NCBI GenBank assembly: GCA_046757485.1
Contig: JBHHYJ010000001.1
Coordinates: 48,319-112,318 of the forward strand
From: Gemmatimonadota bacterium
Lineage (GTDB): Bacteria > Gemmatimonadota > Gemmatimonadetes > Palauibacterales > Palauibacteraceae
DNA: 64,000 bases
Reading direction: 5' to 3'
This document shows, one piece after another, positions 1 through 61,296 of the stretch. Made by a program: the position numbers and the translations under genes. A model generated the notes under the pieces. That model was not told the origin of the DNA and did no database searches. It saw only the letters and a list, made by a program, of their open reading frames with translations. Positions within the stretch are counted from its first letter, which is position 1, and the number at the start of each line of letters is the position of its first letter.

Positions 1-19
1 TCGAATCCGGACGGCGCCT
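1..19 (+). tRNA. partial tRNA 3' end truncated by window edge: T-loop TTCGAAT, T-stem CCGGA, acceptor CGGCGCC, discriminator U (Cys-like)
   Basis: Window starts with TCGAATCCGGACGGCGCCT. This matches the T-loop/T-stem/acceptor layout, and a U73 discriminator is typical of tRNA-Cys. The 5' half is outside the window. Confidence 0.35.
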
Positions 20-27
20 CTCCTCAC

Positions 28-75
28 TCTAGAAGCCTGTTCCCCACCGTCTCCCGGGCCGCCGCCCCGGGTCCA
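28..75 (+). repeat. REP-like element copy (CTAGAAGCCTGTTCC...), follows the truncated tRNA
   Basis: Shares the CTAGAAGCCTGTT core with the other copies. Confidence 0.5.
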
Positions 76-225
76 CACCCGACGCCGGGAAATGCAACCT
101 TCCTTGCCCGCGGGCTGTCCTATTCATTGACGCTGGCGCCGACGGGGTTGCAAGAGGCCCCCGGCGGGCTCGAGACGGAGGTCGGACGAAGGCGATCCGC
201 GCGCGGTGCCGGGCAGGAAAGAGAA

Positions 226-289
226 AAAGAGAGACGGCCGGTGGGGGGCACCCTCCTGTGGCAAGGAACCGAACGGCATGACGCCGCCG
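226..289 (+). repeat. copy 1 of a ~65-nt duplicated motif A (AAAGAGAGACGGCCGGTGGGGGGCACCCTCCTGTGGCAAGGAACCGAACGGCATGACGCCGCC)
   Basis: Near-identical to 4683..4748. Contains two short conserved hairpins (GGTG..CACC and TCCTgtggcaAGGA). Confidence 0.6.
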
Positions 290-381
290 ATCTGCCCCGC
301 ACCGGCCGCTTCTGCTGCATGCCTCCGTTGAAGGAATAATAGGTCGATTCCGGGATCCGCGCCAGATCCTACGCCGAGGGG

Positions 382-879
382 CTACTCGCCGGGCTCAGTG
401 GTGGAGTCGGCCGGGACCTGGGCCGCGAGAGTCCAGCGCGTATCTTCCGCCCGGATAAGCAGGTAGTACTCCTCCCCTCCGCCGTCGTAGTACGCCGTGT
501 CCGTGCCCGCTCCCAAGCGGTTGACGGCGACCCACTGAAGCCTGCCGGTGGGGCTGTACACGAACACGCTCAGCACGCCCTCGTCGGGCGCGGCGTCGTT
601 CCTGGACTCCCAGGCGATCCGCCACTGGGGGGCCTCAACCCGGAACGTGTCGCTCAGCGTCTGACCGGCTCCCCCTGCCCACTGCTTCAGAGTCACCCAG
701 TGCCGGGGTCGAGTCCGGCGTCCCTCGTCCCCCTCGATGATCCGCAGCCCGGAAGTGGTCTCCGTGGTCGGGCGCTTCCGGGTCTCGTCCCCGCCCCGAC
801 AGGCCGTCGTCCAGGTGACCAGGAACAGCGCGGCCAGGCCGGCAAGTCCCCTCGGGTGTGGGATCGGCGATCCGATCAT
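382..879 (-). CDS. hypothetical lipoprotein
   Basis: 165-aa ORF with an N-terminal signal peptide ending in a Cys lipobox-like site (LVTWTTAC). No recognisable catalytic motif. Confidence 0.5.
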   Translation of the reverse strand: MIGSPIPHPRGLAGLAALFLVTWTTACRGGDETRKRPTTETTSGLRIIEGDEGRRTRPRHWVTLKQWAGGAGQTLSDTFRVEAPQWRIAWESRNDAAPDEGVLSVFVYSPTGRLQWVAVNRLGAGTDTAYYDGGGEEYYLLIRAEDTRWTLAAQVPADSTTEPGE

Positions 880-1111
880 TGCTCCAGCCTCCTCCTTTCT
901 CTCCAGGATCCCCGGCGGCTCGCTCAGCTCGCGCCCCTCGCGCTCCGGTGCGATCGGTGGGCACCGCGAGCTTATACCATCGACGAGGGGCCGAGCGTTC
1001 CACTCGCGCCGGGCGAACTTTCGTGGATCGTCTTGCAGGTACGGCCGTCATCGGCTGTCCTCGGAGAAGGCACCCGTCGCTCTTTCCGGAGCGGGCCGAT
1101 GGGCCTAGCCT

Positions 1112-2242
1112 GTGACCTCCGAGAGCCGGATCGGTCAGCCGTACGGGAGCCTGCGCGTGGGACGTCTCTTGCGGGTCGAGAACCTCTTGAACCTCCTGCT
1201 GGGGTTCGTGCCGGCGGCCCTGCTGCTGGAGTTCTTCTTCCACGTCGGCGGCGTGCCGGTCTTCGTGACCTCGGCCGTGGCGATCGTCCCTCTCGCCGGT
1301 CTGATGGGGAAGGCGACGGAAGCGCTGGCCGCCCGGGTGGGCGCGGGGATCGGAGGTTTTCTCAACGCCACCTTCGGCAACGCGGCGGAGCTGATCATCG
1401 CGATCTTCGCCCTGCGGGCGGGCCTGGTGGACCTGGTGAAGGCGTCCCTCACCGGCTCCATCATCGGCAACGTGCTGCTGATCTTCGGCCTCTCAGCCCT
1501 GGCGGGCGGTCTCCGGCATTCCCGCCAGACGTTCAACCGCACCGCGGCCAGCATGGGCACCACGTTGCTTCTCCTGAGCGTGGTGGCGCTCGTCGTGCCG
1601 GCGATCTTCCACGCGGTGAGCGCCCCGGGCGTGGCCGCGGAGCGGGCGCTGAGCGTGGAGATCTCCCTCGTGCTTCTCCTCACGTACGGACTGGGGCTCC
1701 TCTTCTCCCTCCGGACGCACCAGCACCTGTACGCGGGCCGGATGCACGAGGCGGGAGAGGAGGGAGGGGAAGCGGGTTGGTCGCGGCGCCGGGCGTTCGC
1801 CGTCCTTCTCCTCTCCGCCGCCCTCGTGGGGGTGATGAGCGAGATCCTCGTCGGAGCCGTCACCGAGGCGGCCGAGCGGCTGGGGATGACGGAGCTGTTC
1901 GTCGGGGTGATCGTGGTGGCCGTGGTGGGGAACGCCGCCGAGCACTCCACCGCCGTCCTCATGGCCTGGAAGGACAGGATGGACCTGGCGATCCACATCG
2001 CCGTGGGCTCCTCCGTCCAGATCGCGCTCTTCGTGGCCCCCCTCCTCGTGCTGCTCAGCTATCTGCTCGGCCCCACCCCGATGGACCTGCGGTTCACCAC
2101 GTTGGAGGTGTTGGCCGTGACCCTGGCGGCGCTCGTCATCGTGCAGATCGCCCACGACGGCGAGACGAACTGGATGGAGGGCGTCCAAATGCTGGCCGTG
2201 TACGCGATCCTGGGCCTGGCGTTCTTCTACCTTCCCGTCTGA
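1112..2242 (+). CDS. chaA: Ca2+/H+ antiporter, CaCA family (ChaA/YfkE-like)
   Basis: Polytopic membrane protein with the two alpha-repeat GNAAE motifs ([16 protein letters not shown] and [11 protein letters not shown]). The true start may be the internal GTG/TTG near 1157-1170. Confidence 0.8.
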
Positions 2243-2337
2243 GCGGGAGCCGGCGCGCACTCGAACGAACCGCGCGCCGGCACGGCGGCCGCTGTCTTCC
2301 CCCCTATTGCCGTCGGAAGGCCCTGCCCTCGAGCTGT

Positions 2338-2399
2338 CTACTAAGTAGTTAGTTGACAGCTCCGCAGCTCCGGCCTAGTTTCTACTAAACACGTAGTAG
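2338..2399 (+). promoter_or_regulatory. putative BlaI-type operator/promoter: dyads CTACTAAGTAG (2338-2348) and CTACTAaacacgTAGTAG (2382-2399) flanking a TTGACA -35 box (2353-2358) and a TAGTTT -10
   Basis: AT-rich island in a 70% GC background, 30 bp upstream of blaI. Two inverted repeats sit on either side of a sigma70-like promoter, as in blaI/mecI autoregulated operators. Confidence 0.5.
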
Positions 2400-2431
2400 G
2401 ACCAGGCCCCGGTGATCCTGCGGGAGGGCGA

Positions 2432-2869
2432 ATGGAGACGCGCTTTACGGAGAGGGAGCTGGACGTGATGGCGGTCCTGTGGGAGCACGGGCCCTCCACC
2501 GTCGCCGAGGTGCGGGACCGCCTCGGGGACCGACTCGCGTACACGACGGTGCTGACGGTCCTCCGAACGCTCGAGGAGAAGGGACAGGTGGAGCACACGC
2601 AGGAGGGGAAAGCGTACCGGTACCACCCGCTCGTGGGGCGCGAGGTGGCGGGTCGAGGGGCGCTCCGGCGCCTGATGCGGAAGCTCTTCCGGGGGTCCCC
2701 GGAGATGTTGCTGACGCAGCTCGTCTCGGACCCGATGTTGACCCGGGAAGAGCTCCGGGCTCTGCGGGCCCTCCTCGAGGAACGACTCGGGAAGGTCGCG
2801 AAGGAGGCCGACGCGGCGCAGAGGGAAGGCGAGTCCGGCGAGCTTCGAGCTCGGCGAGCATCACGATGA
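2432..2869 (+). CDS. blaI: BlaI/MecI/CopY family transcriptional repressor
   Basis: 145-aa ORF: N-terminal winged helix (LTERELDVMAVLWEHGPSTVAEVRDRL...YTTVLTVLRTLEEKGQV) plus a C-terminal dimerisation helix. ATGA start/stop overlap with the next gene. Confidence 0.85.
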   Translation: METRFTERELDVMAVLWEHGPSTVAEVRDRLGDRLAYTTVLTVLRTLEEKGQVEHTQEGKAYRYHPLVGREVAGRGALRRLMRKLFRGSPEMLLTQLVSDPMLTREELRALRALLEERLGKVAKEADAAQREGESGELRARRASR

Positions 2870-3258
2870 CGGCCCCGTGGATGGTGTACTGTTTGGTGAC
2901 GTCCCTGCTTCTCGGGGGGGCGGCCGTGTCAGCGGAGAGGGTGCTCCGCCTGTACTCACGGCCGGTGCGCTGGGCGTGGGCCGGGGCTCTGCTCGGCTCG
3001 ATAGGGATGCCGGCGCTCGCGTGGCTTCTCTCGGCGTGGGGGTCCCATCCGCACACGCTCGTAGGGTCGGCCCTTCTCCCGCCGATCGTGGAGCAGGTCG
3101 CCGGGGTCACGAGCCCGGGGTTCGGAAGCGTGACCGGTTCGGCGTGGATCTCTCGGTGGGACGGCCTCCTCCTGGGCGCTTGGGTTCTGTCGTCCGCGGG
3201 CGTCGCCGGCGCTCTGCTCCTCTCCTGGTGGACCCTCGGCCGTCTGCGGCAGGGGTAG
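2866..3258 (+). CDS. BlaR1-type (M56) signal-transducer peptidase, N-terminal fragment with three TM helices; ends at an in-frame TAG
   Basis: Hydrophobic N-terminus typical of BlaR1 TM1-TM3. Same reading frame as 3286..4503, separated only by TAG at 3256-3258. Confidence 0.6.
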   Translation: MTAPWMVYCLVTSLLLGGAAVSAERVLRLYSRPVRWAWAGALLGSIGMPALAWLLSAWGSHPHTLVGSALLPPIVEQVAGVTSPGFGSVTGSAWISRWDGLLLGAWVLSSAGVAGALLLSWWTLGRLRQG

Positions 3259-3285
3259 CCGCGAGCCTTCATCGGCGGCCTGCCC

Positions 3286-4503
3286 GTGCTCATCTCGCCC
3301 GAGCAGGGGCCGGCGGTGCTGGGGGTCTTTCGCGGCCAGGTCGTGCTGCCGGCGTGGCTGGACGAGCTGGGAGCCGAATTTCGCCATGCCGTTCTCCTGC
3401 ACGAGACGGAGCATCTCCGATCGGGGGATCATAGGCTACGGGCCGCCGGTCTGGCCGTGCTGGTCTCCCTCGCCTGGAACCCCGTCGTCTGGTGGCTGGT
3501 GCGGCGTCTCCGGCTAGCGATGGAATGCGACTGCGACGCGAGGGTCCTCGCCCGGCGTGTGCCCGTTGGGGCATACGGCGAGCTCCTCGTCACCGTGGGT
3601 TCCCGGCGCCGAGGGCGAATGCCGGGGCTCGCCGCGTTCGCCGAGCCCCGGGGGTTTCTGGAAAGGAGGATTCGCGTCATGACGCAGGGTGCGACGAGGA
3701 ACCGATCCGCGAAGGCGGCTGTCGCGGGGGCCCTGGCGGCCCTGGCCGTGGCCCTCTCTTGTGAAACCCCCGTGCCGACGGAGTCCGAAGGCCCGGCGGC
3801 CAGCGTGGTGCAGGCCACAGGCCAGGCCGAGCCGACGCGCGCGGGCGGAGCGGAGGTGGGGGAGAGGCCCCAGCCCACGCCGTACGACACGCCTCCGCAG
3901 TTGGTGGACGCCGACAGGGTTCGGGCGCTCCTGGCGACGGCGTATCCGCCCGACCTTCGCGCGGCAGGGGTGGGCGGGACGGTCGTCCTGTGGCTCCACC
4001 TCGCGTCGGACGGAACGGTGCTCGGGACGGTGATCAAGGAGGGAAGCGGCGAGCAGAGGCTCGACGAGGCGGCCGTGCGGGTCGCGGAGAAGATCCGGTT
4101 CACACCGGCGCGTTTCCAGGGAGAGCCCGTCCCCGTGTGGGTGATGCTGCCGCTCACCTTCCAGGTTTCATCCGTGGGCTCGATGGGCCCTGGCGCGCGT
4201 GGCGGAGAGACGCCGGGCCTTCGGGCCGGGCGGGCGAGCGCTCCGAGTTCCGGGTCCCGGATCCGGATCCAGGGCTCGGACGCGAACCCTCTTTCCAGCA
4301 ACCCGCTCGTCTACGTGGACGGCCGACTCGTGCCGACCCTCACCCTGGGCGACGGGAAGAGGCTGGCGTGGGGCGATGGGAGTGAGCTCCACCCGGAGGA
4401 GATCCGGACCATCGAGATCGTGAAGGGAGACGAGGCCGTGGCGCGCTTCGGGGCGGCGGGCCGGCGGGGCGCGATCCTGATCACGACGAAGATGGGCGGC
4501 TGA
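3286..4503 (+). CDS. M56 family metallopeptidase (BlaR1-like, HEXXH) fused to a TonB C-terminal domain and a TonB-dependent-receptor plug-like tail
   Basis: HETEH zinc motif (AVLLHETEHLRSGD) then TM4. TonB_C-like segment (YPPDLRAAGVGGTVVLWLHLASDGTVLGTVIKEGSG...IRFTPA). Plug-like end (IEIVKGDEAVARFGAAGRRGAILITTK). The frame is open upstream to the TAG at 3256. Confidence 0.7.
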   Translation: MLISPEQGPAVLGVFRGQVVLPAWLDELGAEFRHAVLLHETEHLRSGDHRLRAAGLAVLVSLAWNPVVWWLVRRLRLAMECDCDARVLARRVPVGAYGELLVTVGSRRRGRMPGLAAFAEPRGFLERRIRVMTQGATRNRSAKAAVAGALAALAVALSCETPVPTESEGPAASVVQATGQAEPTRAGGAEVGERPQPTPYDTPPQLVDADRVRALLATAYPPDLRAAGVGGTVVLWLHLASDGTVLGTVIKEGSGEQRLDEAAVRVAEKIRFTPARFQGEPVPVWVMLPLTFQVSSVGSMGPGARGGETPGLRAGRASAPSSGSRIRIQGSDANPLSSNPLVYVDGRLVPTLTLGDGKRLAWGDGSELHPEEIRTIEIVKGDEAVARFGAAGRRGAILITTKMGG

Positions 4504-4682
4504 GCGGGAAGCCCGACTGGCCGGAAGCAGGATCCAGCCGGGGCGGGAAGTGCGATCCGGCCGCAGCGGGAGGCGGGCCGCGGGGAGGGCGGAAATGGGT
4601 TCCGGCGCCTGGAATGAGGCGTCGAGTGGGGCCGGAGGGGAACCCTGAAACCTTGACGCCCCGGAATCCGTTAAGGGTTCAC

Positions 4683-4748
4683 AAAGGGAGACGGCAGGTG
4701 CGGCGGCACCCTCCTGTGGCAAGGAACCGAAACGGCTTGACGCCGACC
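4683..4748 (+). repeat. copy 2 of duplicated motif A
   Basis: AAAGGGAGACGGCAGGTGCGGCGGCACCCTCCTGTGGCAAGGAACCGAAACGGCTTGACGCCGACC; matches 226..289. Confidence 0.6.
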
Positions 4749-4782
4749 CAACGCCCCGCGCCCGCCCCTCCTTTTTTTCCGA

Positions 4783-4821
4783 CCTCCGCTTCGCTCCGGT
4801 TACGGCGGCGTGGAGCCATCT
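4783..4821 (+). repeat. copy 1 of duplicated motif B (CCTCCGCTTCGCTCCGGTTACGGCGGCGTGGAGCCATCT)
   Basis: Near-identical to 5475..5512; same orientation. Confidence 0.55.
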
Positions 4822-4942
4822 CCTGGGTGGATTCGCCTTCGCCTCAAGGTCTCGCGCGTGGCGCTCGACCGGCCGCTCCTTCGAAATGGCTCACGACATC
4901 GCGTCGTCGCCCCGCCCGACCCGCCTCCGGCGGGTGCCCGCT

Positions 4943-4995
4943 GGCCCCACGGCGCTCGTAACGCGGCCCGCCGTGGCTCTTCAACAGGCTTCTAG
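4943..4995 (-). repeat. REP-like element copy, inverted orientation (GGCCCCACGGCGCTCGTAACGCGGCCCGCCGTGGCTCTTCAACAGGCTTCTAG)
   Basis: Reverse complement matches the 38749..38799 copy almost base for base. Internal hairpin CCACGGCG / CGCCGTGG. Confidence 0.7.
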
Positions 4996-5098
4996 CTGCA
5001 AGAAGAGTGCGCGGCGCCTGGTTCCCGGTACCGGGGGCCGCTAGAATCTCCGCGGAAGCGTGATCGCCCTTCCGGCTTCGAAACCAAGGGAGGGAGAG

Positions 5099-5422
5099 AT
5101 GCCCCATTCGTTCGAAGAGCTGAAGGGGAAGACGGTCGCCCAGCTCCGGGAGATCGCCGAGGGGATCGAGCACGACGCGCTGCACGGCTTCAGCACGATG
5201 CACAAGGAGCACCTGATCCCGGCTCTCTGCGAAGCCCTCGGGATCGAGGCGCACGAGCATCACGAGGTCGTGGGAATCGACAAGTCGAAGGTGAAGGCCA
5301 GGATCCGGGAGTTGAAGACCGAGCGCGACACGGCCCTCGAGGCACGGGATCTGGAGGCCGCCCGTACGGCCCGCCGGGAGATCAAGAAGCTAAAGCGGAA
5401 GCTGCGCCGGGCGATCGTCTAG
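5099..5422 (+). CDS. small Rho_N (Rho termination factor N-terminal) domain-containing protein
   Basis: Strong RBS (AAGGGAGGGAGAG) before ATG 5099. FEELKGKTVAQLREIAEGIE resembles the Rho N-terminal helix bundle. Basic C-terminus. Confidence 0.6.
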   Translation: MPHSFEELKGKTVAQLREIAEGIEHDALHGFSTMHKEHLIPALCEALGIEAHEHHEVVGIDKSKVKARIRELKTERDTALEARDLEAARTARREIKKLKRKLRRAIV

Positions 5423-5450
5423 CAGCCTGTTGAAGAAACCCCCACGCGCC
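5419..5450 (+). repeat. REP-like element, partial copy (CTAGCAGCCTGTTGAAGAAACCCCCACGCGCC); its TAG is the stop codon of the Rho_N gene
   Basis: Shares the CTAG-AGCCTGTTGAAGA core. Confidence 0.5.
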
Positions 5451-5474
5451 CTGAGGGTGGGTGCAAGCACAGAT

Positions 5475-5512
5475 CTCCGCCTCGCTCCGGTTGCGGCGGC
5501 GTGGGGCCATCT
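5475..5512 (+). repeat. copy 2 of duplicated motif B
   Basis: CTCCGCCTCGCTCCGGTTGCGGCGGCGTGGGGCCATCT; about 120 bp upstream of tRNA-Leu. Confidence 0.55.
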
Positions 5513-5630
5513 GTTTCCGCAGCCACGGTGGGCGCCGGACGCTCGGGGAAACGCGCGCGCTTGGTGACGGATCTCGGCCTCGCCGTTGCGAGGCCCGTCC
5601 TTCTGCCTAACTTCAGGGGCCCCTCGGGGC

Positions 5631-5714
5631 GCCGGAGTGGCGGAACTGGCAGACGCGCCGGACTCAAAATCCGGTGGGAGCAATCCCTTGTGGGTTCGAG
5701 TCCCACCTCCGGCA
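5631..5714 (+). tRNA. tRNA-Leu (anticodon CAA)
   Basis: Manual fold. Acceptor GCCGGAG/CTCCGGC with discriminator A. Anticodon stem CCGGA/TCCGG with loop CTCAAAA. Long variable arm. T-arm GTGGG-TTCGAGT-CCCAC. 84 nt; no CCA encoded. Confidence 0.9.
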
Positions 5715-5797
5715 TGGAGCGGACCGGTGGGTGAGCCGGCAGGAGGGGCGGGAGGGGGCACCCCGGATCCCGAAACCTCCCGCCGTCCCGCTCGTTT

Positions 5798-6268
5798 CTA
5801 CGGCTCCAGGAACTTCACCTCGCGAACCAGCTTGCTGCTGAGGATCGTGCGGATCTCGGGGTAGACGGTCGACGTGATCCGGTTGGTTTCGTCCTCGCTG
5901 ATCATCGCCTGCACCCGCTCGCCGATGCGCTGGACCTTCTCCCGCCACGCCGCCGTGGCGTCGAAGGACGCCAGGTTCGGATGCTCCGTGACGAGGATCA
6001 GGTTGTACCCCTGGTCGTTGGGCGTGATGCTCGTGTAGAGGCTGTAGTCCGTCGTGAGGCCTTCCGCCATCGCCTCCTTCACGCCCGTCACCCACGTCCG
6101 CTTCAGGTTGTTCAGGTATCGCTCGTCCATGTTGGGATGAATCCGGATGAGCGTGACGTTGTACACGATCTCCTGGGTTTCCCAGGTTTCGCCTTCCTGT
6201 GCCAGGCTGCCGTGCGTCGCCAGGGGGACGAGGCCCAGCGCGATGAGGGCGAGGGACAGTCTTCGCAT
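5798..6268 (-). CDS. secreted hypothetical protein (about 157 aa), lower GC than its surroundings
   Basis: Signal peptide MRRLSLALIALGLVPLATHGSLA. No recognisable motif. About 60% GC against a ~70% background. Confidence 0.55.
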   Translation of the reverse strand: MRRLSLALIALGLVPLATHGSLAQEGETWETQEIVYNVTLIRIHPNMDERYLNNLKRTWVTGVKEAMAEGLTTDYSLYTSITPNDQGYNLILVTEHPNLASFDATAAWREKVQRIGERVQAMISEDETNRITSTVYPEIRTILSSKLVREVKFLEP

Positions 6269-6593
6269 GATGCGTTCTCCTGGTCTGAACGGAATGGGAG
6301 GACCGATACGGATGATCGACCCGGGTGCAGCCAGCATAGAGGACGTTGTTGCGGGGCGCCAGGCTCCCGGGATGCCGCGAGAACGCCCCGCCACCCGCCC
6401 CGGAGGGCGCGCGGCCGCTCCGACGGTGGAACCGGCGTTCCCCGCGGCGGCGTTTTAATGCGCAATGATCGGGCATCGTCGCCGGCCGCCGCTCCGCCCC
6501 GGAGCGAGGCCCGGGTACCTTGCGCGCTTCAGCCGCCGTCCCCCATGCTTCCGTCGAGGGCGGTGGCCTGAGGTTCCTCGGACTGGAGGTGAG

Positions 6594-6977
6594 ATGCGTC
6601 AGAACGTCGTCGGAATGCTGGCTCTCCTTCTGGTTCCGGCTTGCGCCACGGCACCTCGGAGCCACGACACGGTGCCGTCGACCCCGGCCACGGGCTCCGT
6701 CGCCTGGAGTCTCGAGGAGGCGTTCGATCGGATCCCGGGCGTCCTGAAGGAAGCCGGTTGGGACGTCACGGAGGTGAACTTCCGGACGGGCGTGATCCAG
6801 GGCAATCGGTCGGAGGGTGGGTATCCGGAGTGGGTCGGGGTCACGCTCCTCCCGAAGGTCGAGGGAGGCAGCGACTTCCGGATCTCGGTCCGCTCCTCGC
6901 GCGGGGGGCGGGAGGGCTCCCAGGCCGCCAAGGTGGTTCGCGTCGCGATCCTGGCAGCGGCGGAGGGAGGCTCTTAG
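6594..6977 (+). CDS. hypothetical lipoprotein
   Basis: RBS GGAGGTGAG then ATG. Signal peptide with lipobox (LLLVPAC). Confidence 0.5.
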   Translation: MRQNVVGMLALLLVPACATAPRSHDTVPSTPATGSVAWSLEEAFDRIPGVLKEAGWDVTEVNFRTGVIQGNRSEGGYPEWVGVTLLPKVEGGSDFRISVRSSRGGREGSQAAKVVRVAILAAAEGGS

Positions 6978-7732
6978 GAACGGCCGAGGGTGGCTTCGAC
7001 ATAGGCCCGGATCGCCCGGTGGGTGGCGGGATCCATCCATACGCTCTCCCCATCGGCCGCGGTTTCCCCGGCGCCGCCTGCGGCTCTCTCGAGAACGGGC
7101 CCGTGCATCTGGCGCTTCGTGAGGGCGAAGGCGGCGGGCGGAACGCTTGCCAGCTCCCGGGCCGCTTCGAGGGCTCGCTCCACGAGTCGATCCGCGTCGA
7201 CGAGCTCGTCGATGAGACCCCGGCGCAGTGCCTCGGGCCCCGAGTACGTCTCTCCCCGGTACACCAATTCTCGCAGGAAGCGCCGAGGCACGGCCCCGCG
7301 CACGATCTCCAGAGCGAGTGGGGGAAATGGCACGCCTACCCGGAGCTCCGGCACGCCGATCCTTCCGGACCCTTCGCTCATGAGGCGGAGGTCACAGGCG
7401 CAGGCTACCACACATCCCCCCGCGATCGCGTGACCGTTTAACGCCGCGATGACGGGCTTCGGGAACGTGTACAGATGGACCAGCAAGCTTCGCAGGACGG
7501 GGAGGAACTCCTGGACGTATCGGCTCCCCCCCTCCAGGAGGCGGAAGAGATCCACGCCGGCGGAGAAGATCGGCCCGGCAGCCGTGAGGACCAGCGCCCG
7601 CACACCGTCCTCGGCCCGCGCCTCCTCCAGCTCCCGGACGAGCTCGGAGGCCATCTCCACATCGATGGCGTTCGCCTTCCCGTGTTCGAGCCACACAAGG
7701 TCGGCGGCGTCTCGGTTCTCGCGTCGGATCAT
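6974..7732 (-). CDS. enoyl-CoA hydratase/isomerase (crotonase) family protein
   Basis: Crotonase-fold motifs (LVLTAAGPIFSAGVDL..., ALNGHAIAGG). Start chosen at the internal Met (MIRRENRDAADLVWLE) to give the typical ~250-aa length. Confidence 0.8.
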   Translation of the reverse strand: MIRRENRDAADLVWLEHGKANAIDVEMASELVRELEEARAEDGVRALVLTAAGPIFSAGVDLFRLLEGGSRYVQEFLPVLRSLLVHLYTFPKPVIAALNGHAIAGGCVVACACDLRLMSEGSGRIGVPELRVGVPFPPLALEIVRGAVPRRFLRELVYRGETYSGPEALRRGLIDELVDADRLVERALEAARELASVPPAAFALTKRQMHGPVLERAAGGAGETAADGESVWMDPATHRAIRAYVEATLGRS

Positions 7733-8088
7733 CGTCTCCGACTCACGGAGGGGTCCCGCGCGCGCCCGGCGCCGGGCGCGGTGATCGGTGATCTCAGCAT
7801 ACCGTACCCGGGGAGCCGGCGCACGCGGGGGCCGCGGCACAGGGGGGAAGCAGGCTGCCATGGGCGGTCGAGGGGTCCCGTGGCCCGAGAGGGGATCTCG
7901 ACGCAACCCGAACCCGTTACTTTGCATGGGGATTCGGTTTTGAGAGCCGGCGAGCGGATTGAGGGATCACGGGCGCTCACGCGCCGTGCAACCCTGTGTG
8001 TGCGGTTCCGGGTCGAACCTGGCGAGCCGAGGGAGGCACGGATGGCTCCGGCGTAGGACGACCACGGAGGAAGAGGAGTCGGTACGCG

Positions 8089-14307: not shown

Positions 14308-17300
14308 TCGATCTCTCCATCCGGCGGCCCGTCGCCACGGCCTGTCTGTACATCGCGCTGCTCGCCCTGGGGGCGTACAGCTTCCGCCTCATCCCCCTGG
14401 AGCTCCTGCCGGAGGTGAGCTACCCCCGCCTCACGGTGACCGCATCGTGGCGGGGAGCGTCGCCCGAGGCGATGGAAGCGTTCGTCACCGCGCCCCTCGA
14501 GGCGGCCGTGGAGCAGGTGGGCGGCGTGCGGAAGGTGAGCTCCGTCTCCCGGGCGGACCGGAGGGGGGCCAGCTCACGGTCGGAAATCGACGTGGAGTTC
14601 GCCCGGGCCACCCGCATGGAGTTCGCTCGACTCGAGCTGGGGGAACGCCTCGCGGCGCTCCAGGATGAGCTTCCGGTCGGCGTTCGTCCCTCGGTCTCCC
14701 GGTACGTACCCCCCGAGTTCGCCGAGGAGAACCGGCCGTTTCTCAGCTACCAGCTCAGCGGGCCGTACACGTTCGAGCACCTGGGCGAGCTGGCCGACAG
14801 GGAGGTGAGGCCGCTGCTGCTCGCGGTGGACGGCGTCTCCCAGGTGCGGGTGTACGGCGGCGAGGAGCGGGAGATCGAGGTGCTGCTGGACCGGGGGAAG
14901 CTCGAGGCGCTGGGGCTCCGGCCGGAGGAGGTGGCCCAGCGGATCCTGGACGTTTCGCTTCCTCGGGCGCCGGGCGCCGTGGAGCTCGCCGGACAACGGA
15001 TGGCGCTGGCGGTCCGGACCCGGGTGTGGACCGTGCCGGAGCTCAGCGAGCTGGTCGTGGCGGGCGGAGAGGACGGGCCGCCGGTGCGGGTGGGGGAGAT
15101 CGGCCGGGTGAGGGAGCGGACGGCGGAGCCGAGCGCCTACCACCGGATCGACGGACAGCCGACGGTGTCGCTCATCATCTACCGGCAGGCGGGCACGAAC
15201 GCGGTCCGCCTCGCCGACGCGATCAAGGGCCGGATCGTCGCGGTGGGTGCGGAGCTCCCGGCGGGCGCGCGCCTGGAACTGGACGAGGACGAGAGCCGGG
15301 AGATCCGCACCCAGCTAACGGATCTCCGGCTACGGGCCGCCGCGGCGGCGGTGGTCATCTTCCTCGTGCTGATGCTTTTTCTCCAGTCCCTGGGAGCCGT
15401 GCTCGTCGTCTTCGCGACGATCGCCTTCAGCGTGCTGATCGCGGTGAACTTCCTCTACCTGGGCGGCTTCTCCCTCAACGTCCTGACCCTGGCCGGGCTG
15501 GCCTGGGGGTTCGGCCTGGTGGTGGACAACGGGATCGTCGTGCTGGAGAACGTGGAGCGGCACCGGCGGGGTGGGAAGCCGCGCCGGGCGGCGGCGCGAG
15601 AGGGTGCCCGCCAGGTCGTCCTCCCGGTGCTCGCGGCCACTTTCACGACGGCGATCGTCCTCGTGCCGTTCCTGTTTCTCCAGGGGGAGCTGCGGCTCTA
15701 CTACCTGCCGCTGGCGTACGCGGTGGGCTTCTCCATCCTGGCCAGCCTGTTCGTCGCTTTCACCTTCGTGCCCGCCCTGGCGGCGCGCCTCGCCCCGGGC
15801 CCTGCCGGCCGGACGGATTCGGGGGCGGGCTCGGGATCCGCGGAGGGTCGGGCGACGGGAGCCTGGGGCGAGCGGACGCCTGGGACTCGTTCCGGCCCGC
15901 GATCCGATCCCCTGTATCTTCGCGCCTATCGCGCGTTGCTGAGTGGAGCCCTGAACCACCCGCTGCTCGTGGCGTTCGTGTGCTTCGGGAGCCTGGGGGG
16001 AAGCTGGATGCTGTTCGACGACCACGTGAACCGCGGCGTGAGGTGGTCGGACTTCTGGGGTCAGCGGACCTACATCGACATCCTCATCAGCTTTCCCCGT
16101 GGGGCCGGTCTGGAGCGCACCGACGAGCTCGCCCGCTCCTTCGAGGCGAAGCTCGCCACGCTGCCCGAGGTGGCGCGCTACGAGTCGAACGTTCTGCCGC
16201 AGTTCGCCCGCATCCGGGTCACCTTCCCCGAGGAGCTCGAGACGACGCAGGTCCCGGTGGCGATCAAGGAGCAGATGGTCGCCTACAGCTACGGATTCTC
16301 GGGGGTGCAGGTCCGAGTGTACGGCTACGGTCCGAGCTTCTATGGGGGAGGGGGGAGCCCACCGAACTATCGACTTAAGGTGTATGGTTATAACTATCTC
16401 ACAGTTCGAGATATAGCGGAGGAGATCGCCTCCCGCCTGGAGCGGTTCAGCCGGATTCGCGACGTGGACCCGAACGCCAGCGGATGGTACGAGCCGGAGA
16501 AGGAGTTCGAGTACTACGTGGCTCCCGATCGGGCGGCGCTGGGCGACTACGGCCTCACCGTCCAACAGCTACTGGCCTACGTCGCCTCCAACGTGCGGGG
16601 GGCGGAGACGGGGCAGCGCTTTCGTCTGGGGCCGGAGGAGATGCCCCTCTCCGTGAAGGTGGCCGGCTACCGGGAGTTCGACCTGCGGGCGCTGGAACGG
16701 CTCCAGGTACCCGTGGCGCCGGGGCGCGACGTGCGGCTGGCCAGCGTGGCGGATGTCGGGGTGCGCAACGTGCTGGCCAGCATCCGCCGGGAGGATCAGC
16801 AGTACGAACGGACCGTGGCGTGGGAGTTTCGGGGCCCGCGGAAGCTCGGGGACCTGGTGCGGGACGCGGTGGTGGATGCCATGGAGCTTCCGCCCGGCTA
16901 CCGGGTCGAGGAGGAGGAGCGGTGGCGGTGGTCCGAGGAAGAACAGGCCCAGGTGTATCTGGCGCTGGGCTTCTCCATCCTCCTCGTATACATGGTAACG
17001 GCGGCGCTCTTCGAGTCTCTGGCGGCGCCGTTCGTCGTTCTCCTCACCCTGCCCCTGGCCCTCATCGGGGTGTTCCTCATCTTCTTCTACACGAACGCCA
17101 CCTTCACCGACACCGCGTACATCGGAACGATCATGATGGGGGGGATCGTGGTGAACAACGCGATCCTCATCGTATATCACATCGGCGAGCTCCGGCGGAG
17201 AATGGAGACGCGGGCGGCGATCCTCCAGGGGACTCTGGAGCGGGTCCGACCCATCATGATGACGAGTCTCACGACCGTCCTCGGTCTTCTCCCTCTCGTG

Positions 17301-17435
17301 CTCCTCTCCGGCTCGGACGACACCATCTGGAACGCCCTCGCCCTGGCGACGATCGGGGGACTCCTGTCGAGCACCCTCTTCGTGCTCGTCGCCATTCCCG
17401 TCGCCTACCGGTGGCTGGTGGCGCGGCGTACGTGA
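14304..17435 (+). CDS. efflux RND transporter permease subunit, second paralog (MdtC/MuxC-like)
   Basis: ATGA overlap with the upstream RND gene. N-terminus MIDLSIRRPVATACLYIALLALG. Conserved TM4 (GLVVDNGIVVLEN) and TM10 regions. Confidence 0.9.
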   Translation: MIDLSIRRPVATACLYIALLALGAYSFRLIPLELLPEVSYPRLTVTASWRGASPEAMEAFVTAPLEAAVEQVGGVRKVSSVSRADRRGASSRSEIDVEFARATRMEFARLELGERLAALQDELPVGVRPSVSRYVPPEFAEENRPFLSYQLSGPYTFEHLGELADREVRPLLLAVDGVSQVRVYGGEEREIEVLLDRGKLEALGLRPEEVAQRILDVSLPRAPGAVELAGQRMALAVRTRVWTVPELSELVVAGGEDGPPVRVGEIGRVRERTAEPSAYHRIDGQPTVSLIIYRQAGTNAVRLADAIKGRIVAVGAELPAGARLELDEDESREIRTQLTDLRLRAAAAAVVIFLVLMLFLQSLGAVLVVFATIAFSVLIAVNFLYLGGFSLNVLTLAGLAWGFGLVVDNGIVVLENVERHRRGGKPRRAAAREGARQVVLPVLAATFTTAIVLVPFLFLQGELRLYYLPLAYAVGFSILASLFVAFTFVPALAARLAPGPAGRTDSGAGSGSAEGRATGAWGERTPGTRSGPRSDPLYLRAYRALLSGALNHPLLVAFVCFGSLGGSWMLFDDHVNRGVRWSDFWGQRTYIDILISFPRGAGLERTDELARSFEAKLATLPEVARYESNVLPQFARIRVTFPEELETTQVPVAIKEQMVAYSYGFSGVQVRVYGYGPSFYGGGGSPPNYRLKVYGYNYLTVRDIAEEIASRLERFSRIRDVDPNASGWYEPEKEFEYYVAPDRAALGDYGLTVQQLLAYVASNVRGAETGQRFRLGPEEMPLSVKVAGYREFDLRALERLQVPVAPGRDVRLASVADVGVRNVLASIRREDQQYERTVAWEFRGPRKLGDLVRDAVVDAMELPPGYRVEEEERWRWSEEEQAQVYLALGFSILLVYMVTAALFESLAAPFVVLLTLPLALIGVFLIFFYTNATFTDTAYIGTIMMGGIVVNNAILIVYHIGELRRRMETRAAILQGTLERVRPIMMTSLTTVLGLLPLVLLSGSDDTIWNALALATIGGLLSSTLFVLVAIPVAYRWLVARRT

Positions 17436-17571
17436 GCGGCCGTCCGGGACCGGCGAGCCGCCGGAAGCCGGCCGGCCCGCAGCGTCCCCCGCCGCCGCCT
17501 CTGGCCGCGCGCGCCCCGGAAGCCCATCCTCCCCGGCGGACGGAGGTGGAGGTCGCGACACGGGAGGGAGC

Positions 17572-24339: not shown

Positions 24340-26718
24340 CTACGGCGCGGAACCGGGCGGAGCCGCGCCGCCGCTTCCTGCCAGAAGTTCGGAGAGCAGC
24401 TCCCTGGCCCCGTAGGCGTTGCGGAGGGCCTCGAGGATCCCGGCGGAGTGCACCCCGACGGACCGGGCCGCCCGGGTCCGGAACAGGAACTCGTTCGGCA
24501 GTTGCTCGATGTTCCCGTCGAACGCCACCCCCACGATGCGGGCCTCCCGGTCGATGACCGGACTTCCGCTGTTCCCACCCGTGATGTCGTTGGTGGCCAC
24601 GAAATTCAACGGTGTCGAGAGGTCGATCTCCGCCCGCTTCGCCTCGAAGGCGGCCGACAGCTTCCAGGGCATCTCGTTGCCGAACTCCGCCGCCCGGGCG
24701 TACAGCCCGTAGAAGGTCGTGTAGGGCGGCGCGAACGTACCGTTGTACGGATAGCGACGGATCACGCCGTCGCTGATGCGAAGGGTGAAGGTCGCGTCGG
24801 GCGGCACGTCGGTCCCGAACGTGGCGAAGAGGGCGTCGGCCAGGCGCTCCTCCTGCACTTGCTCCGCCGAGGTGGTTGCCTCCCAGCGTGAGGCGAGCTC
24901 CGGGTAGACGCCCGCCATATGGGTGGCGAGCCCGAGCAGTGCGTCGCCGGTTCCCTCCAGGGAGCCGGGACCGCCCTCGAGAAGTCGCTGGCGATACCCG
25001 ACCTCCATGAGGCGCGAGCCGGAGATGAGCCGCCTGGCGGCCTCGGCGGGCGTCTCGCCCGCCCGGAACGCCAGCGACCGGAACGGATCGTCGGCCGGGA
25101 GGAACCGCTCGGCGATCTCCAGTCGGAGGGCGAGCAGGCTCTCGGCCACCTCGGGATCCGGACGCTGGGGTTGGCGCAGCAGAGCCTCCCTCTTGGCCAG
25201 CTCCTCTCCCCGGAACTCGGCGGAGCGCTCCGTCTCCGGCTTCGCCATCTCGTGCAGGTAGGTGACGAGCGTCCCCGCCACCGACTCGTACGGCCCTCCC
25301 AGGAAGTCCGGGTTGTTCACGTTGAGCGGCGGTGCGAGGCGGAACTTGTCGCGCTGGATCGCCTCCATCCGCTCCCACGCGTCCCCGTACTCGGCCGCCA
25401 AGCGCGGGTCTCCCTCTACGCGCCGCCGGAACTCTCTTTCCCACAGCATCTTTCGCCCGATGAGCGTGGTGTCTCTGAGACCGCCCAGCTGTCCACGAAA
25501 CGCCTTGAGGCTGTTCTCCACGCTGAACAGGTTGTCCCGTACGGCCCGAGCCGCCTGCGGGCCGCGCGAGGCGATGGACTGGAGCAGGGTCCGCTGGCCC
25601 TCGAGGATGGTGAGGATGAACGGGTGGCGGAACCGCTGTTCGTACATCAGCTCCGAGACGGTGGCCAGACGGCTCGTGGTTCCCGGGTTGCCCGTGATGA
25701 AGACAAGCTCGCCCTCCGCCGCGCCTTCCGGGTTCCATCGGAAGTAGTGAGGCGTGGCGGCTGCCGTCGTGCTGTCCGCCTCGTACGCCCGCACGAACGC
25801 CACGTCCAGATCGTACCGCGGATACGTGAAGTTGTCCGGATCGCCCCCGAAGTAGGCCGCCTGCAGCTCGGGGAGGAAGACGAGCTTCACGGGCGCGTAC
25901 CGCCGGTATTCGTATAGCTGATACTGGCCCCCGTGGTACAGCGTGACGACCTGGCAGGTGTGCCCGGAGTCCGCCTCGCACTCCGCCTCGGCGGCTCGCG
26001 CGGCCGAGTCCTGTGCGGCCACGGCGGCCTCGTCGGCCATGCCCGCCCGCGCCGCGCCCTTGATACGGTCGGTCACGTCGCTGATGCGGACGAGCTGGTC
26101 CAGGTAAAGGCCGGGGCACAGGATCTCCCGCTGGCGTGAGTCGGCGTAGAACCCGGCCTGCACGTGATCGTGCGTGGCGTCCGAGACCGCCTCGGCGCAC
26201 TCTCGCGCACAGTGGTGGTTCGTCATCACCAGGCCGTTCGGGGAGACGAAAGAGGCGGAGCAGATCTCTCCGAAGCGCACGGAGGAGAGTCGGACGTGCT
26301 CCAGCCACTCCGACGTGGGGCGGAATCCGTACGTGGAATCCCAGTAGCTGAGCGGGGGGTTCTCGAACGTCCACATCGTTCCTGTCTCGAGTCCCTCCAG
26401 CCGGGTCTGCTGGGACGCCCGCCGCGCGGCCGGAGACGGAAGAAGCGCTCCGGGGGCCCACGCCCCGACGTCGGCCTCACCGGGGCCGCCGGTGGTCTCC
26501 CGGGCCCGGCCGGCCGATCCTCGGGGAGCTTCCGGCGCCGCCGGCTCGCTCGGGGATGCGAGACCCACCCGTTGGGTCACCGAGCTCCGGGCCGCCGGAT
26601 CGGCCGCGGAGGTCCGGATGCCGCCCGATGCGCATCCTGCCACGGGAAGGAGCGCGGCGAGCGGGACCACGAAAGCCAGAACACCGGGCGGCTGTTTCTT
26701 CCACGTCAGGATCTTCAC
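24340..26718 (-). CDS. S46 family dipeptidyl-peptidase (DPP7/DPP11-like), lipoprotein
   Basis: Catalytic triad contexts: MTNHHC (His), TGGNSGSP (Ser), and the chymotrypsin-fold Asp region. Lipoprotein signal LLPVAGC. Confidence 0.85.
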   Translation of the reverse strand: MKILTWKKQPPGVLAFVVPLAALLPVAGCASGGIRTSAADPAARSSVTQRVGLASPSEPAAPEAPRGSAGRARETTGGPGEADVGAWAPGALLPSPAARRASQQTRLEGLETGTMWTFENPPLSYWDSTYGFRPTSEWLEHVRLSSVRFGEICSASFVSPNGLVMTNHHCARECAEAVSDATHDHVQAGFYADSRQREILCPGLYLDQLVRISDVTDRIKGAARAGMADEAAVAAQDSAARAAEAECEADSGHTCQVVTLYHGGQYQLYEYRRYAPVKLVFLPELQAAYFGGDPDNFTYPRYDLDVAFVRAYEADSTTAAATPHYFRWNPEGAAEGELVFITGNPGTTSRLATVSELMYEQRFRHPFILTILEGQRTLLQSIASRGPQAARAVRDNLFSVENSLKAFRGQLGGLRDTTLIGRKMLWEREFRRRVEGDPRLAAEYGDAWERMEAIQRDKFRLAPPLNVNNPDFLGGPYESVAGTLVTYLHEMAKPETERSAEFRGEELAKREALLRQPQRPDPEVAESLLALRLEIAERFLPADDPFRSLAFRAGETPAEAARRLISGSRLMEVGYRQRLLEGGPGSLEGTGDALLGLATHMAGVYPELASRWEATTSAEQVQEERLADALFATFGTDVPPDATFTLRISDGVIRRYPYNGTFAPPYTTFYGLYARAAEFGNEMPWKLSAAFEAKRAEIDLSTPLNFVATNDITGGNSGSPVIDREARIVGVAFDGNIEQLPNEFLFRTRAARSVGVHSAGILEALRNAYGARELLSELLAGSGGAAPPGSAP

Positions 26719-26835
26719 GCGTTTCTCCTCTCCCGTGTCGCAGGAACCGGGAGTCGAGAGCGGCGAAACGGTAGTCCGGGGCGCTCGCCTCCCGTGGGAC
26801 CGTGCGGCTATTCTAGACCCTCGGCATCAGATATC

Positions 26836-26957: not shown

Positions 26958-27728
26958 GTGGCGAAACGGTACGTGGCGGAGCATCGCGGAAAGCTGTTCA
27001 ACCTGCTGTGGCCGTTGACCCGCTACCTGATCACGAACCTCTCCGTGGCGGTGGCGTTCGTCCTCTTTTTCCTCTTCAATCGGACCACCGTCCTGCGGAG
27101 GAGAAACGTTCCGCGTCGCAGGAACACCCTGCTCCTCTCCAACCATCAGTCGATGATCGACAGCTTTCTGGTCGGCATGTGCGCCTACTACCCGTGGTCG
27201 TGGCTGAAGCCGTCGCTCATTCCTTGGAACCCGGCCGCACAGGAGAACTTTTACGGCCAACCGCTGCTCGCCTGGTTCTCCGACCAGTGGAAGTGCATTC
27301 CCGTCCGGGAGGGCCGCCGGGACCTCAGGGCGCTGTACCGCATGATGACCGCGCTGCGTGGGGGCACGATGACGTTATTCCCCGAGGGCACACGGAGTCG
27401 GGACGGAAGCGTCGGCCCGGGACGCCCCGGGGCGGGTCTCCTGGTGCTCGGGAACCATCCCACCGTGATTCCGGTAGCGATCGACGGAATGGGAGACCTG
27501 CTTCCCGTGGGGTCCAGGTGGCCACGGCTGGGGAAGAGGGTGTACGTCTACTTCGGGCGGCCGTTCGACACCTCCGAGTTCCTGACCAGGCCGCGCTCCA
27601 AGGAGACCGCGCAGGAGCTGGTGGACCGGGTTCTCGTGACGATACGTCGCCAACAGCGGGCCGTGAGGCGTCTGCGCAGGTTCAGGGCCCGGTACGGTCG
27701 CGCCGCGAGTACCCCACGGCGCTCGTGA
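26958..27728 (+). CDS. 1-acyl-sn-glycerol-3-phosphate acyltransferase (PlsC/LPLAT family)
   Basis: HX4D motif (NHQSMIDSF) and FPEGTRS motif. The frame is open from TTG 26880; GTG 26958 is preferred (RBS GGGGAAAGC). Confidence 0.8.
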   Translation: MAKRYVAEHRGKLFNLLWPLTRYLITNLSVAVAFVLFFLFNRTTVLRRRNVPRRRNTLLLSNHQSMIDSFLVGMCAYYPWSWLKPSLIPWNPAAQENFYGQPLLAWFSDQWKCIPVREGRRDLRALYRMMTALRGGTMTLFPEGTRSRDGSVGPGRPGAGLLVLGNHPTVIPVAIDGMGDLLPVGSRWPRLGKRVYVYFGRPFDTSEFLTRPRSKETAQELVDRVLVTIRRQQRAVRRLRRFRARYGRAASTPRRS

Positions 27729-27765
27729 CGCGACCCGCCGTGGTTTTTCCACGGGCTTCGAGGAG
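27712..27765 (-). repeat. REP-like element copy, inverted orientation, overlapping the last codons and stop of plsC (CCCCACGGCGCTCGTGACGCGACCCGCCGTGGTTTTTCCACGGGCTTCGAGGAG)
   Basis: Perfect 8-bp stem CCACGGCG/CGCCGTGG with a 14-nt loop; same architecture as the 4943 and 38749 copies. Confidence 0.6.
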
Positions 27766-38752: not shown

Positions 38753-38799
38753 AAGCCTGTTGCAGAACCACGGCGGGTCGCGTTACGAGCGCCGGGGGG
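38749..38799 (+). repeat. REP-like element, best forward copy (CTAGAAGCCTGTTGCAGAACCACGGCGGGTCGCGTTACGAGCGCCGGGGGG); its TAG is the dnaB stop codon
   Basis: Matches the inverted copies at 4943..4995 and 27712..27765 almost base for base. Confidence 0.7.
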
Positions 38800-38881
38800 C
38801 CAGAGCGGAGGGCGACTCGCCCGGGGTCAGATCGAAGGCGGCGTGACACCGCGGTTTTCGGCAGATCTCGGGGCAGCGTAG

Positions 38882-40967: not shown

Positions 40968-42849
<1,882 letters not shown>

Positions 42850-45021: not shown

Positions 45022-45432
45022 ATGTTCACATTCTTGATCGTTCTGATGAGCCTTCTGGCGTTGCTGCTGATCGTCACCATTCTGCTCCAGTCGGGGAAGG
45101 GAGGGGGCCTGGCGGCCACGTTCGGCGGCGCTTCCTCCTCCACGGAATCCTTCATGGGAGGCCGCCAGGCGGCCACGGTGCTGACGAAGATGACCTGGAC
45201 GGGCGGGGGGTTGTTTCTCTTTCTCGCGCTCGTGCTGGCGATTCTCTCCTCCCGGAGCTCGGGTCCCCCCGAGTCGATCCTCCGCCAGGGGACGAGCCCG
45301 CAGCCGCTGGAGGCGCCCACCTCGGTCCTGCAAAGCGAGGCGGCTCCGGCGGAGACGACAGGGTCGCAGGAGGAGACGCCGGGCGAAGCTTCCGGGAGCG
45401 GAGAGCAGGAGCCTCGGCCGCCTGGGGGCTAG
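45022..45432 (+). CDS. secG: preprotein translocase subunit SecG
   Basis: LIVTILLQSGKGGGL SecG motif; follows gap-pgk-tpiA as in many bacteria. Confidence 0.8.
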   Translation: MFTFLIVLMSLLALLLIVTILLQSGKGGGLAATFGGASSSTESFMGGRQAATVLTKMTWTGGGLFLFLALVLAILSSRSSGPPESILRQGTSPQPLEAPTSVLQSEAAPAETTGSQEETPGEASGSGEQEPRPPGG

Positions 45433-45491
45433 AAGCCGCCAAGCCCCCACGCGCGCGGCCCACCGTGGTTCTTCAACAGGCTCCTAGCTAG
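45429..45491. repeat. back-to-back pair of REP-like elements forming a 63-bp palindromic unit between convergent secG and rnhA
   Basis: Plus-strand CTAGAAGCCGCC... starts at the secG stop. Minus-strand CTAGCTAGGAGCCTGTTGAAGAACCACGGTGGGCCGCGCGCGTGG starts at the rnhA stop. Confidence 0.6.
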
Positions 45492-47256: not shown

Positions 47257-47401
47257 CAGTTCTCCACCTCCGGGTTTAGGTTGAGCTGGGTGGGGACCCC
47301 GCGTTCGTTGGTGTTGCCTCCCGGCCTGCGGGGATCCGGACTCGGACGCCCCGCCACGACCGTGTTATCCCGGGGCTCGTTCCAAGGACCGGTTCGATCG
47401 G

Positions 47402-61295: not shown

Positions 61296-61296
61296 G

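Follow-up and report, generated by a model that had tools for sequence, protein, structure and literature searches.

A putative ECF-sigma-controlled structured RNA within a mosaic of unrelated repeats around a resident small gene in a Gemmatimonadota genome

In Escherichia coli, the small RNAs (sRNAs) MicA, RybB and MicL depend on sigma-E. Sigma-E or other extracytoplasmic function (ECF) sigma factors also control the sRNAs VrrA and MicV in Vibrio (PMC6694218), and an ECF-dependent sRNA, FoxJ, is described in Fusobacterium (PMC11005410). Here we analyse a 64,000-nt stretch of a Gemmatimonadota bacterium (GenBank assembly GCA_046757485.1, contig JBHHYJ010000001.1, positions 48,319 to 112,318; hereafter the window, 69.9% G+C), in which a short element termed motif A occurs twice on the plus strand, at 224–316 (copy 1) and 4683–4771 (copy 2). 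The sigma-E/ECF-dependent sRNAs would be its closest functional analogues. Like them, motif A is short and intergenic, lies behind an ECF-type promoter motif, carries a conserved short block, has a hairpin-plus-U end in copy 2 and is represented by paralogues in one genome. Unlike them, it is found in the phylum Gemmatimonadota, has no sequence or Rfam similarity to them, and holds its conserved block inside a closed three-way junction rather than in a free 5′ seed. An ECF-dependent small RNA is a known kind of element; the motif A family is not in Rfam, and a literature search retrieved no publication on regulatory RNAs from this phylum.

Motif A is probably the gene for a structured small RNA under an ECF-sigma promoter, situated amid a mosaic of three unrelated repeats around a resident gene of 107 codons (the mini-gene, 5099–5422, plus strand). 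A wider proposition has two parts. Motif A would represent an undescribed family of ECF-sigma-controlled regulatory RNAs in an uncultured Gemmatimonadota clade, with a C-rich core in a three-way junction, a stem of ∼20 bp that doubles as terminator, and paralogues with two promoter variants for two ECF sigmas; a second, REP-like (repetitive extragenic palindromic-like) family would specifically occupy CTAG/TAG stop-codon sites. We consider the case for this proposition evenly balanced. If true, a conserved RNA tied to an ECF-type promoter offers a testable entry to envelope or stress regulation in a largely uncultured phylum, and the motif A alignment can serve as the seed for an RNA family.

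The duplicated motifs that an earlier sequence-only reading of this region had reported, namely motif A, a second motif B and the REP-like copies, are all present where that reading placed them and are non-random. The two copies of motif A share an exact 27-mer (247–273 and 4705–4731; none expected by chance) and are 90% similar over 226–286 and 4683–4745; together with an outer stem they extend over approximately 224–316 and 4683–4778. Further copies were identified in related contigs and loci, which are labelled below with L-numbers; L026 and L031 were obtained via contigs encoding close homologues of the mini-gene product. A 15-mer of the motif A core is present, besides the window, in L026, L031, L008/L016 and L012/L020, of which L016 and L020 are the same sequences as L008 and L012, respectively, refound in a genome scan. 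A metagenome scan with a 19-nt core returned two true copies (L008 and L012) and three chance matches, and a gapped-pattern scan of genomes returned only the two known genomes plus 11 chance matches in other phyla. The exact 27-mer had no match in the first genome-collection scan, and neither the motif A core nor the REP-like box matched any viral contig. Within the window, a covariance model (R1) run with filters off gave no further copy beyond a weak match of 18.9 bits at 5735–5805, which is considered below with the tRNA that precedes it.

In total, six distinct motif A sequences are available from five Gemmatimonadota genomes, and they lie in three gene contexts. Window copy 2 and the copies in L026 and L031 are 3′ of a BlaR1-like gene and 5′ of the mini-gene; window copy 1 lies between a tRNA and a convergent gene (382–879, minus strand); and the copies in L008 and L012 lie between a LOG-like gene and an APC permease gene. 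L026 is arranged as BlaI, BlaR1-like gene, a 570-bp spacer with motif A, the mini-gene and the start of tRNA-Leu, and L031 as a homologue of a 165-aa minus-strand gene of the window, BlaI, BlaR1-like gene, a 384-bp spacer with motif A, and the mini-gene. When the spacers between the BlaR1-like gene and the mini-gene from the window, L026 and L031 are aligned, motif A is the sole long invariant block.

Folded independently by minimum free energy, all six sequences give one architecture, in which a closing stem of 20–23 bp (P1) surrounds a three-way junction with two small hairpins, P2 and P3. The 21-nt core ACCCUCCUGUGGCAAGGAACC, which comprises J1/2, the 4-bp hairpin P2 (UCCU-GUGGCA-AGGA) and J2/3, is invariant in all six. 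P3 is formed by CGGC/GCCG in four of the six (CGGC-AUGAC-GCCG in copy 1) and by GCCAC/GUGGC in the other two, with two positions altered on both sides. The sequence of P1 varies among copies and its pairing is kept; 95.3% of the paired cells in alignment A3 hold standard pairs, compared with 40–50% when the partners are slid by 1–3 columns, and four P1 pairs are changed on both sides. The covariation score is 0.296 versus 0.136 in shuffled alignments and was reached by none of 500 shuffles. Copy 1 has a fold z-score of −2.9 and scores 99.1 bits with the covariance model, and copy 2 scores 88.6 bits. The same fold is thus retained with compensatory changes in six related sequences, as expected of a conserved structured RNA. 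G-U cells outnumber A-C cells by six to one, favouring the plus strand as the folded strand, and the direction of the promoter motifs and a run of seven T residues after copy 2 likewise indicate this strand.

An unannotated structured RNA had been one of the explanations offered by the sequence-only reading for the whole repeat-bearing region. The suggestion holds for motif A alone, which has conserved and covarying stems and a specific type of promoter motif. The comparison with Rfam that the reading had proposed yielded no known RNA family: Rfam 15 gave no match besides tRNA-Leu, whether in 1–6600 at E values up to 1 or in the whole window at gathering thresholds, apart from a spurious sX4 match that overlaps the tRNA-Leu.

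An oriented ECF-type promoter motif precedes all six copies at the sequence level. ECF promoters have the consensus tgaAAC, or an element ending in AAC, at −35 and CGTA to CGTC at −10 (PMC5758882). Upstream of copy 2, TGAAAC-N17-CGTT is found at 4646–4672 (plus strand), the sole TGAAAC-N17-CGT on either strand of the 64 kb against 0.07 expected. The pattern TGAAAC-N17-CGT(A/T) precedes this copy and those in L026, L031, L008 and L012, always with a spacer of exactly 17 nt, where about 16–17 nt is expected of an ECF-type promoter, and among 37 related loci TGAAAC-N17-CGT stands solely directly 5′ of motif A. Copy 1 is preceded by a variant, (T)GCAAC-N17-TGTC (94–119, plus strand), which is again the sole match in the window (0.21 expected). 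GCAAC-N17-TGTC recurs in L026 and L031 as a second, more distal site 5′ of motif A and nowhere else in the related loci, and in L008 and L012 GCAAC-N17-CGTC lies between the TGAAAC-type site and P1. The TGAAAC/GCAAC pattern precedes nothing else in the window and is therefore not that of a housekeeping promoter; a sigma-70 promoter scan called nothing in 1–1200 or 4400–5900.

The tandem TGAAAC-type and GCAAC-type motifs span 2140–2276 in L026, 2627–2727 in L031, 2048–2124 in L008 and 1339–1422 (minus strand) in L012. Unlike these tandem pairs, the paralogues in the window keep one promoter motif each. The pairing of promoter types may be a sign that two different sigma factors are in control. 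Genes for ECF sigma factors are usually autoregulated, so that the cognate genes would be expected to carry such motifs in their own promoters.

The 3′ arm of P1 in copy 2 is followed immediately by the T7 run (4772–4778, plus strand). The sequence-only reading had called this run exceptional for such GC-rich DNA, rightly so, since it is the only A/T homopolymer of at least 6 nt in the 64-kb window. It would provide the U-tract for an end resembling an intrinsic terminator. In L026, the copy in synteny finishes with CUCUUUUCC, a weaker U-run; more generally, the tail after P1 is U-rich in the copies found in the BlaR1 context and only pyrimidine-rich in L008 and L012, where transcription may run on into the permease gene.

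Taken together, these features suggest how motif A may work. An ECF-family sigma factor would transcribe it from the promoter with −35 AAC and −10 CGT-type elements, and in copy 2 the transcript would be ended by P1 plus the U7 tract. The predicted RNA from copy 2 is ∼100 nt long because the −10 element ends at 4672, P1 starts at ∼4686 and U7 occupies 4772–4778. For the other copies the leader from promoter to P1 would be longer, ∼25–130 nt, with an RNA of ∼200 nt or more where the promoter lies far away; the conserved domain would therefore be the 3′ end of a longer RNA. The C-rich, anti-Shine-Dalgarno-like core, which is invariant, could then act in trans on other transcripts, in the manner of the sigma-E-dependent sRNAs.

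Several observations weigh against this interpretation. The six sequences come from five closely related genomes, so that the covariation counts are small, not phylogenetically independent and supportive rather than conclusive. The assignment of the promoters to the ECF class uses a consensus from distant phyla, and no ECF sigma gene was found among the proteins covered by the domain scan (about 36 of the 48 predicted in the window, a scope that applies to all protein-domain negatives below). A canonical U-tract follows copy 2 alone, with the weaker run in L026 and none in L008 and L012, and a simple terminator scan called nothing in 1–1200 or 4400–5900. When the core was compared with 48 translation start regions, the best target was not significant, as 42 of 300 shuffled cores equalled it. 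Finally, for five of the six copies a gene on the same strand begins 40–320 nt to the 3′ side, an arrangement that is also compatible with a 5′ leader. For the record, the best predicted duplex of the 48 is with the start region of an S46 peptidase gene (26699–26758, minus strand), GGUUCCU..GACACGGGAGAGG, at −28.8 kcal/mol.

The position of these 3′ genes also speaks for the strongest alternative, in which motif A is a cis-acting 5′ leader, of attenuator or riboswitch-like type, in ECF-driven transcripts, with P1 and its U-tract serving as a conditional terminator. In L008 and L012 such a leader would belong to the APC permease gene, and in the other three loci (the window, L026 and L031) to the mini-gene. 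P1 in L012 finishes only ∼40 nt 5′ of the ATG, and the lack of a U-tract after P1 in L008 and L012 makes read-through likely there. As in known riboswitch or attenuator leaders, a conserved multi-stem junction lies 5′ of genes and a stem is combined with a U-tract, here once. The class of the 3′ gene, however, is inconsistent: the mini-gene in three cases, the APC permease in two and, for copy 1, a gene that is convergent, so that this copy has no gene to lead into. The three are functionally unrelated and do not form a single gene class, and the start codon lies anywhere from 40 to 320 nt away. The mini-gene, moreover, retains a conserved −10 box and a ribosome-binding site of its own, and many other relatives carry an orthologue of it that is not preceded by motif A. 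A GC-rich P1 of 20–23 bp is also very long and much more stable than one would expect of a ligand-gated stem, and no Rfam match links the element to a described leader. We therefore regard a cis-acting leader as unlikely, and less so than the other alternatives.

A second alternative is that motif A works as DNA, whether as a protein-binding or recombination palindrome, as a terminator acting in both directions or as inverted repeats belonging to a small mobile element. P1 is indeed a long inverted repeat, and the two copies lie 4.4 kb apart on either side of a block of four genes encoding a hypothetical protein, a CaCA protein, BlaI and the BlaR1-like protein, of which the CaCA gene is missing between the homologous genes in L031. 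Assembly broke exactly at both copies in L038, a Logan contig of the same strain that corresponds to 248–4731 of the window. The pattern of variation argues the other way. The arms vary and stay complementary around an invariant centre, which is the opposite of what the inverted repeats of transposons show, and the six G-U pairings are tolerated on the plus strand alone. The element also has a fixed orientation relative to the promoter-like motif, sits in synteny in both L026 and L031, where it is not polymorphic, and has no integrase or transposase nearby among the window proteins scanned. A purely DNA-level function is accordingly very improbable, and the gene for a structured sRNA remains the preferred reading. 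L038 itself starts and stops exactly within the two motif A 27-mers, the repeat at which its assembly broke, and this shows independently that no long exact repeat other than motif A surrounds the 4.4-kb block. The same strain is present in samples SRR29324609 and SRR29324611.

Direct repeats 4.4 kb apart near tRNA genes also resemble the attL and attR sites of tRNA-linked islands. They differ from such sites in that the repeat is not derived from either tRNA, no integrase is encoded between the copies, and the conserved structured element also occurs where no tRNA is near. The sequence-only reading had itself set aside a simple attL/attR island, and this judgement was borne out.

Least credible of all is its proposal that the mini-gene framed by REP-like and motif B copies is a small mobile or recombinogenic cassette, or that the repeats are a duplicated tRNA-associated leader or promoter: the geometry is real (motif B copy 1, inverted REP-like copy, gene, REP-like box, motif B copy 2, tRNA), but L026 and L031 keep BlaI, the BlaR1-like gene, motif A and the mini-gene in the same places without REP-like element or motif B, the REP-like element is dispersed and follows many housekeeping genes, motif B has no other copy in the sequence searched, no recombinase was found among the window proteins scanned, and motif A lacks a nearby tRNA in L031, L008 and L012.

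Because L026 and L031 keep the gene order without them, the framing repeats are later, genome-specific additions around a resident gene. Judged from these loci, the order BlaI, BlaR1-like gene, motif A, mini-gene (then tRNA-Leu) is older than both the REP-like element and motif B. The region, so read, is a mosaic of three unrelated repeats around a resident, non-mobile small gene, and the frame is a coincidental layering. For annotation, this means that the striking frame of repeats around the mini-gene is no cassette.

The second of these repeats, the REP-like element, forms a family of ∼10 copies in the 64 kb, intergenic and in both orientations, as found by nhmmer, blastn and a search for its box. 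The box CTAGMAGCCTGTT occurs seven times in the window against 0.03 expected, and the consensus of the element is CTAGAAGCCTGTTGAAGA followed by a hairpin with the arms CCACGGCG..CGCCGTGG. Four copies are full (∼58 nt): 4938–4998 (minus strand), 27704–27764 (minus), 38748–38807 (plus) and 45429–45490 (minus); partial copies or bare boxes lie at 29, 5418, 26834, 41721 and 53390. The full copy at 4938–4998, with CTAG box and hairpin, lies 5′ of the mini-gene (nhmmer E 3.8e-18) and is 93% identical to the copy at 38748–38803. On the other side of the mini-gene, a partial box, CTAGCAGCCTGTTGAAGA (5418–5444, plus strand; nhmmer and repeat search), supplies the TAG stop of the gene and is followed by a different hairpin. 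A third box near the start of the window, CTAGAAGCCTGTT (29–41, plus strand; box search), begins 10 nt past a tRNA end; an unrelated GC hairpin, CCCGGG..CCCGGG, comes after it at 54–75.

The tetranucleotide CTAG is strongly avoided in this DNA, with 19 occurrences in the window where base composition predicts 176, a depletion of about nine- to tenfold. Nine or ten of the 19 sites sit inside REP-like boxes, so that the box accounts for about half of the occurrences of this depleted word. In the mini-gene, DnaB, SecG and the gene at 52461–53393, the TAG of the box is the stop codon, and in the RNase H gene a TAG stop is immediately 5′ of a REP-like box. These positions suggest that the element either inserts at CTAG/TAG sites or is kept there once present, the typical site being the stop codon TAG of a gene. 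The CTAG-anchored repeat illustrates a way for a dispersed element to end up sharing stop codons with housekeeping genes. The convergent gap between SecG and RNase H (45429–45490) consists of one REP-like element with a CTAGRAGCC box at both ends, one of which provides the SecG stop while the other directly follows the RNase H stop; it is the only copy boxed at both ends.

The mini-gene orthologues in L026 and L031 also stop with TAG and lack the REP-like box, and no copy of the element was found in any related locus. On these grounds the REP-like element is, as far as the compared loci indicate, a recent, lineage-specific dispersed repeat of the REP/MITE kind (MITE, miniature inverted-repeat transposable element). 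It resembles REP sequences, their composites (bacterial interspersed mosaic elements, BIMEs) and small MITEs in its many intergenic copies of ∼58 nt, its imperfect palindrome, its dispersal in both orientations mostly just past genes, and its absence from orthologous sites of relatives. The head of a typical REP is GTAG; this element differs in being anchored on CTAG, often at a TAG stop codon. It also differs from REPs and MITEs in having a box at both ends in the 45429–45490 copy only, and no REP-associated tyrosine transposase (RAYT) or other transposase was found among the window proteins scanned.

The third repeat, motif B, is a 41-nt imperfect hairpin with copies at 4781–4821 and 5472–5512 (both plus strand) that are 90% identical; no third copy was found in the window or in the related loci searched. 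Its fold is not significant (z-scores −0.6 and −1.1). The four differences between the copies fall at unpaired positions or form G-U pairs. Neither L026 nor L031 conserves motif B, with no more than faint similarity in the orthologous regions of L026, and we take it for a small hairpin that was duplicated locally, in two copies. Its translation as a minus-strand peptide, MAPRRRNRSEAE, for which three of the four differences would be synonymous, was considered and rejected: the open reading frames (ORFs) diverge after 12 residues, have flat G+C at the third codon position (GC3) and are not conserved, and a chance origin has a probability of ∼0.1. The L026 spacer has a short direct repeat of its own, CCGCACCTCCTCCCCG, present twice in 2438–2485, so that small duplications of the motif B kind seem to be frequent in spacers of this type.

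The mini-gene around which the three repeats are arranged encodes a conserved hypothetical protein of 107 aa (5099–5422) behind the ribosome-binding site AAGGGAGGGAGAG at 5086–5098 (plus strand). The gene and its strong ribosome-binding site, both claimed by the sequence-only reading, are genuine: GC3 is 0.91, more than 1200 homologues, mostly of 107 aa, occur in Gemmatimonadota and Acidobacteriota, and the ribosome-binding site is kept in the window, L026 and L031. The Rho_N domain it had named lies below the Pfam threshold; the match to PF07498, in the N-terminal part of the protein, is weak (E 0.0016, 18.8 bits versus a cut-off of 24.9), although this family is assigned to some mini-gene homologues in a precomputed table. 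The product has no match in the PDB or NCBIfam. A hexamer TAGAAT at 5042–5047 (plus strand) is likely the −10 box of the mini-gene's own promoter; it was missed by a consensus promoter scan, and the matching hexamers 5′ of the gene are TAGATT in L026 and TAGACT in L031. In about 10 other relatives, the neighbours of the mini-gene differ and motif A is absent. The claim that the 555-bp stretch upstream holds no credible ORF proved correct, as its ORFs have flat GC1/2/3, with a GC3 of 0.66–0.79 compared with 0.86–0.91 in real genes.

Both tRNAs of the region are genuine, as had been claimed. tRNA-Leu(CAA) at 5631–5714 (plus strand) was identified by ARAGORN and Rfam, and L026 ends within its syntenic counterpart, of which it holds the 5′ part. 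The remnant at 1–19 (plus strand) is a tRNA 3′ end, consisting of T-loop, T-stem and acceptor strand, that is cut by the window edge; the Logan contig L041, identical to window 1–1400, adds 8 nt, ACTCCGGT, on the 5′ side and completes the T-arm TCCGG-TTCGAAT-CCGGA. Between tRNA-Leu and a convergent gene (5798–6394, minus strand) lies a GC-rich hairpin at 5741–5790 (plus strand; repeat D7, inverted repeat I10). This is the region of the 18.9-bit match to the motif A model, and its 5′ arm and that of motif A copy 1 (GGGGGCACCC) are 81% identical. The hairpin is probably a GC-rich terminator but may instead be a decayed third copy of motif A without P2 and P3.

The BlaR1-like gene at 2866–4503, with M56 peptidase, TonB_C and Plug domains, contains an in-frame TAG at 3256–3258. 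The near-identical L038 has TGG there (G where the window has A at 3257) and encodes an intact protein of 545 aa (P0121). The in-frame TAG may be a nonsense polymorphism, the mark of a pseudogene or a consensus error in the metagenome-assembled genome (MAG). In L031, ∼250 nt separate BlaI from the homologue of the 165-aa minus-strand gene, and this interval holds no CaCA gene, in contrast to window 1112–2242. In a more distant BlaI-BlaR1 locus, L039, which has neither motif A nor the mini-gene, a 174-aa minus-strand gene stands directly before BlaI, again without CaCA. The CaCA gene, a Na/Ca exchanger, thus seems to have been gained or lost in a lineage-specific manner within the block between the two motif A copies.

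The other neighbouring genes of the window are ordinary chromosomal genes, encoding RND efflux, DnaB, citrate synthase, PGK, TIM, SecG and RNase H. The 48 predicted genes stop with TGA in 30 cases and with TAG in 17. The GC3-based gene call leaves gaps of at least 1 kb at 6978–7995, 15144–17571, 40968–42773, 47257–48269 and 61296–62386; in the gap at 40968–42773, a gene evidently terminates at the REP-like box near 41722.

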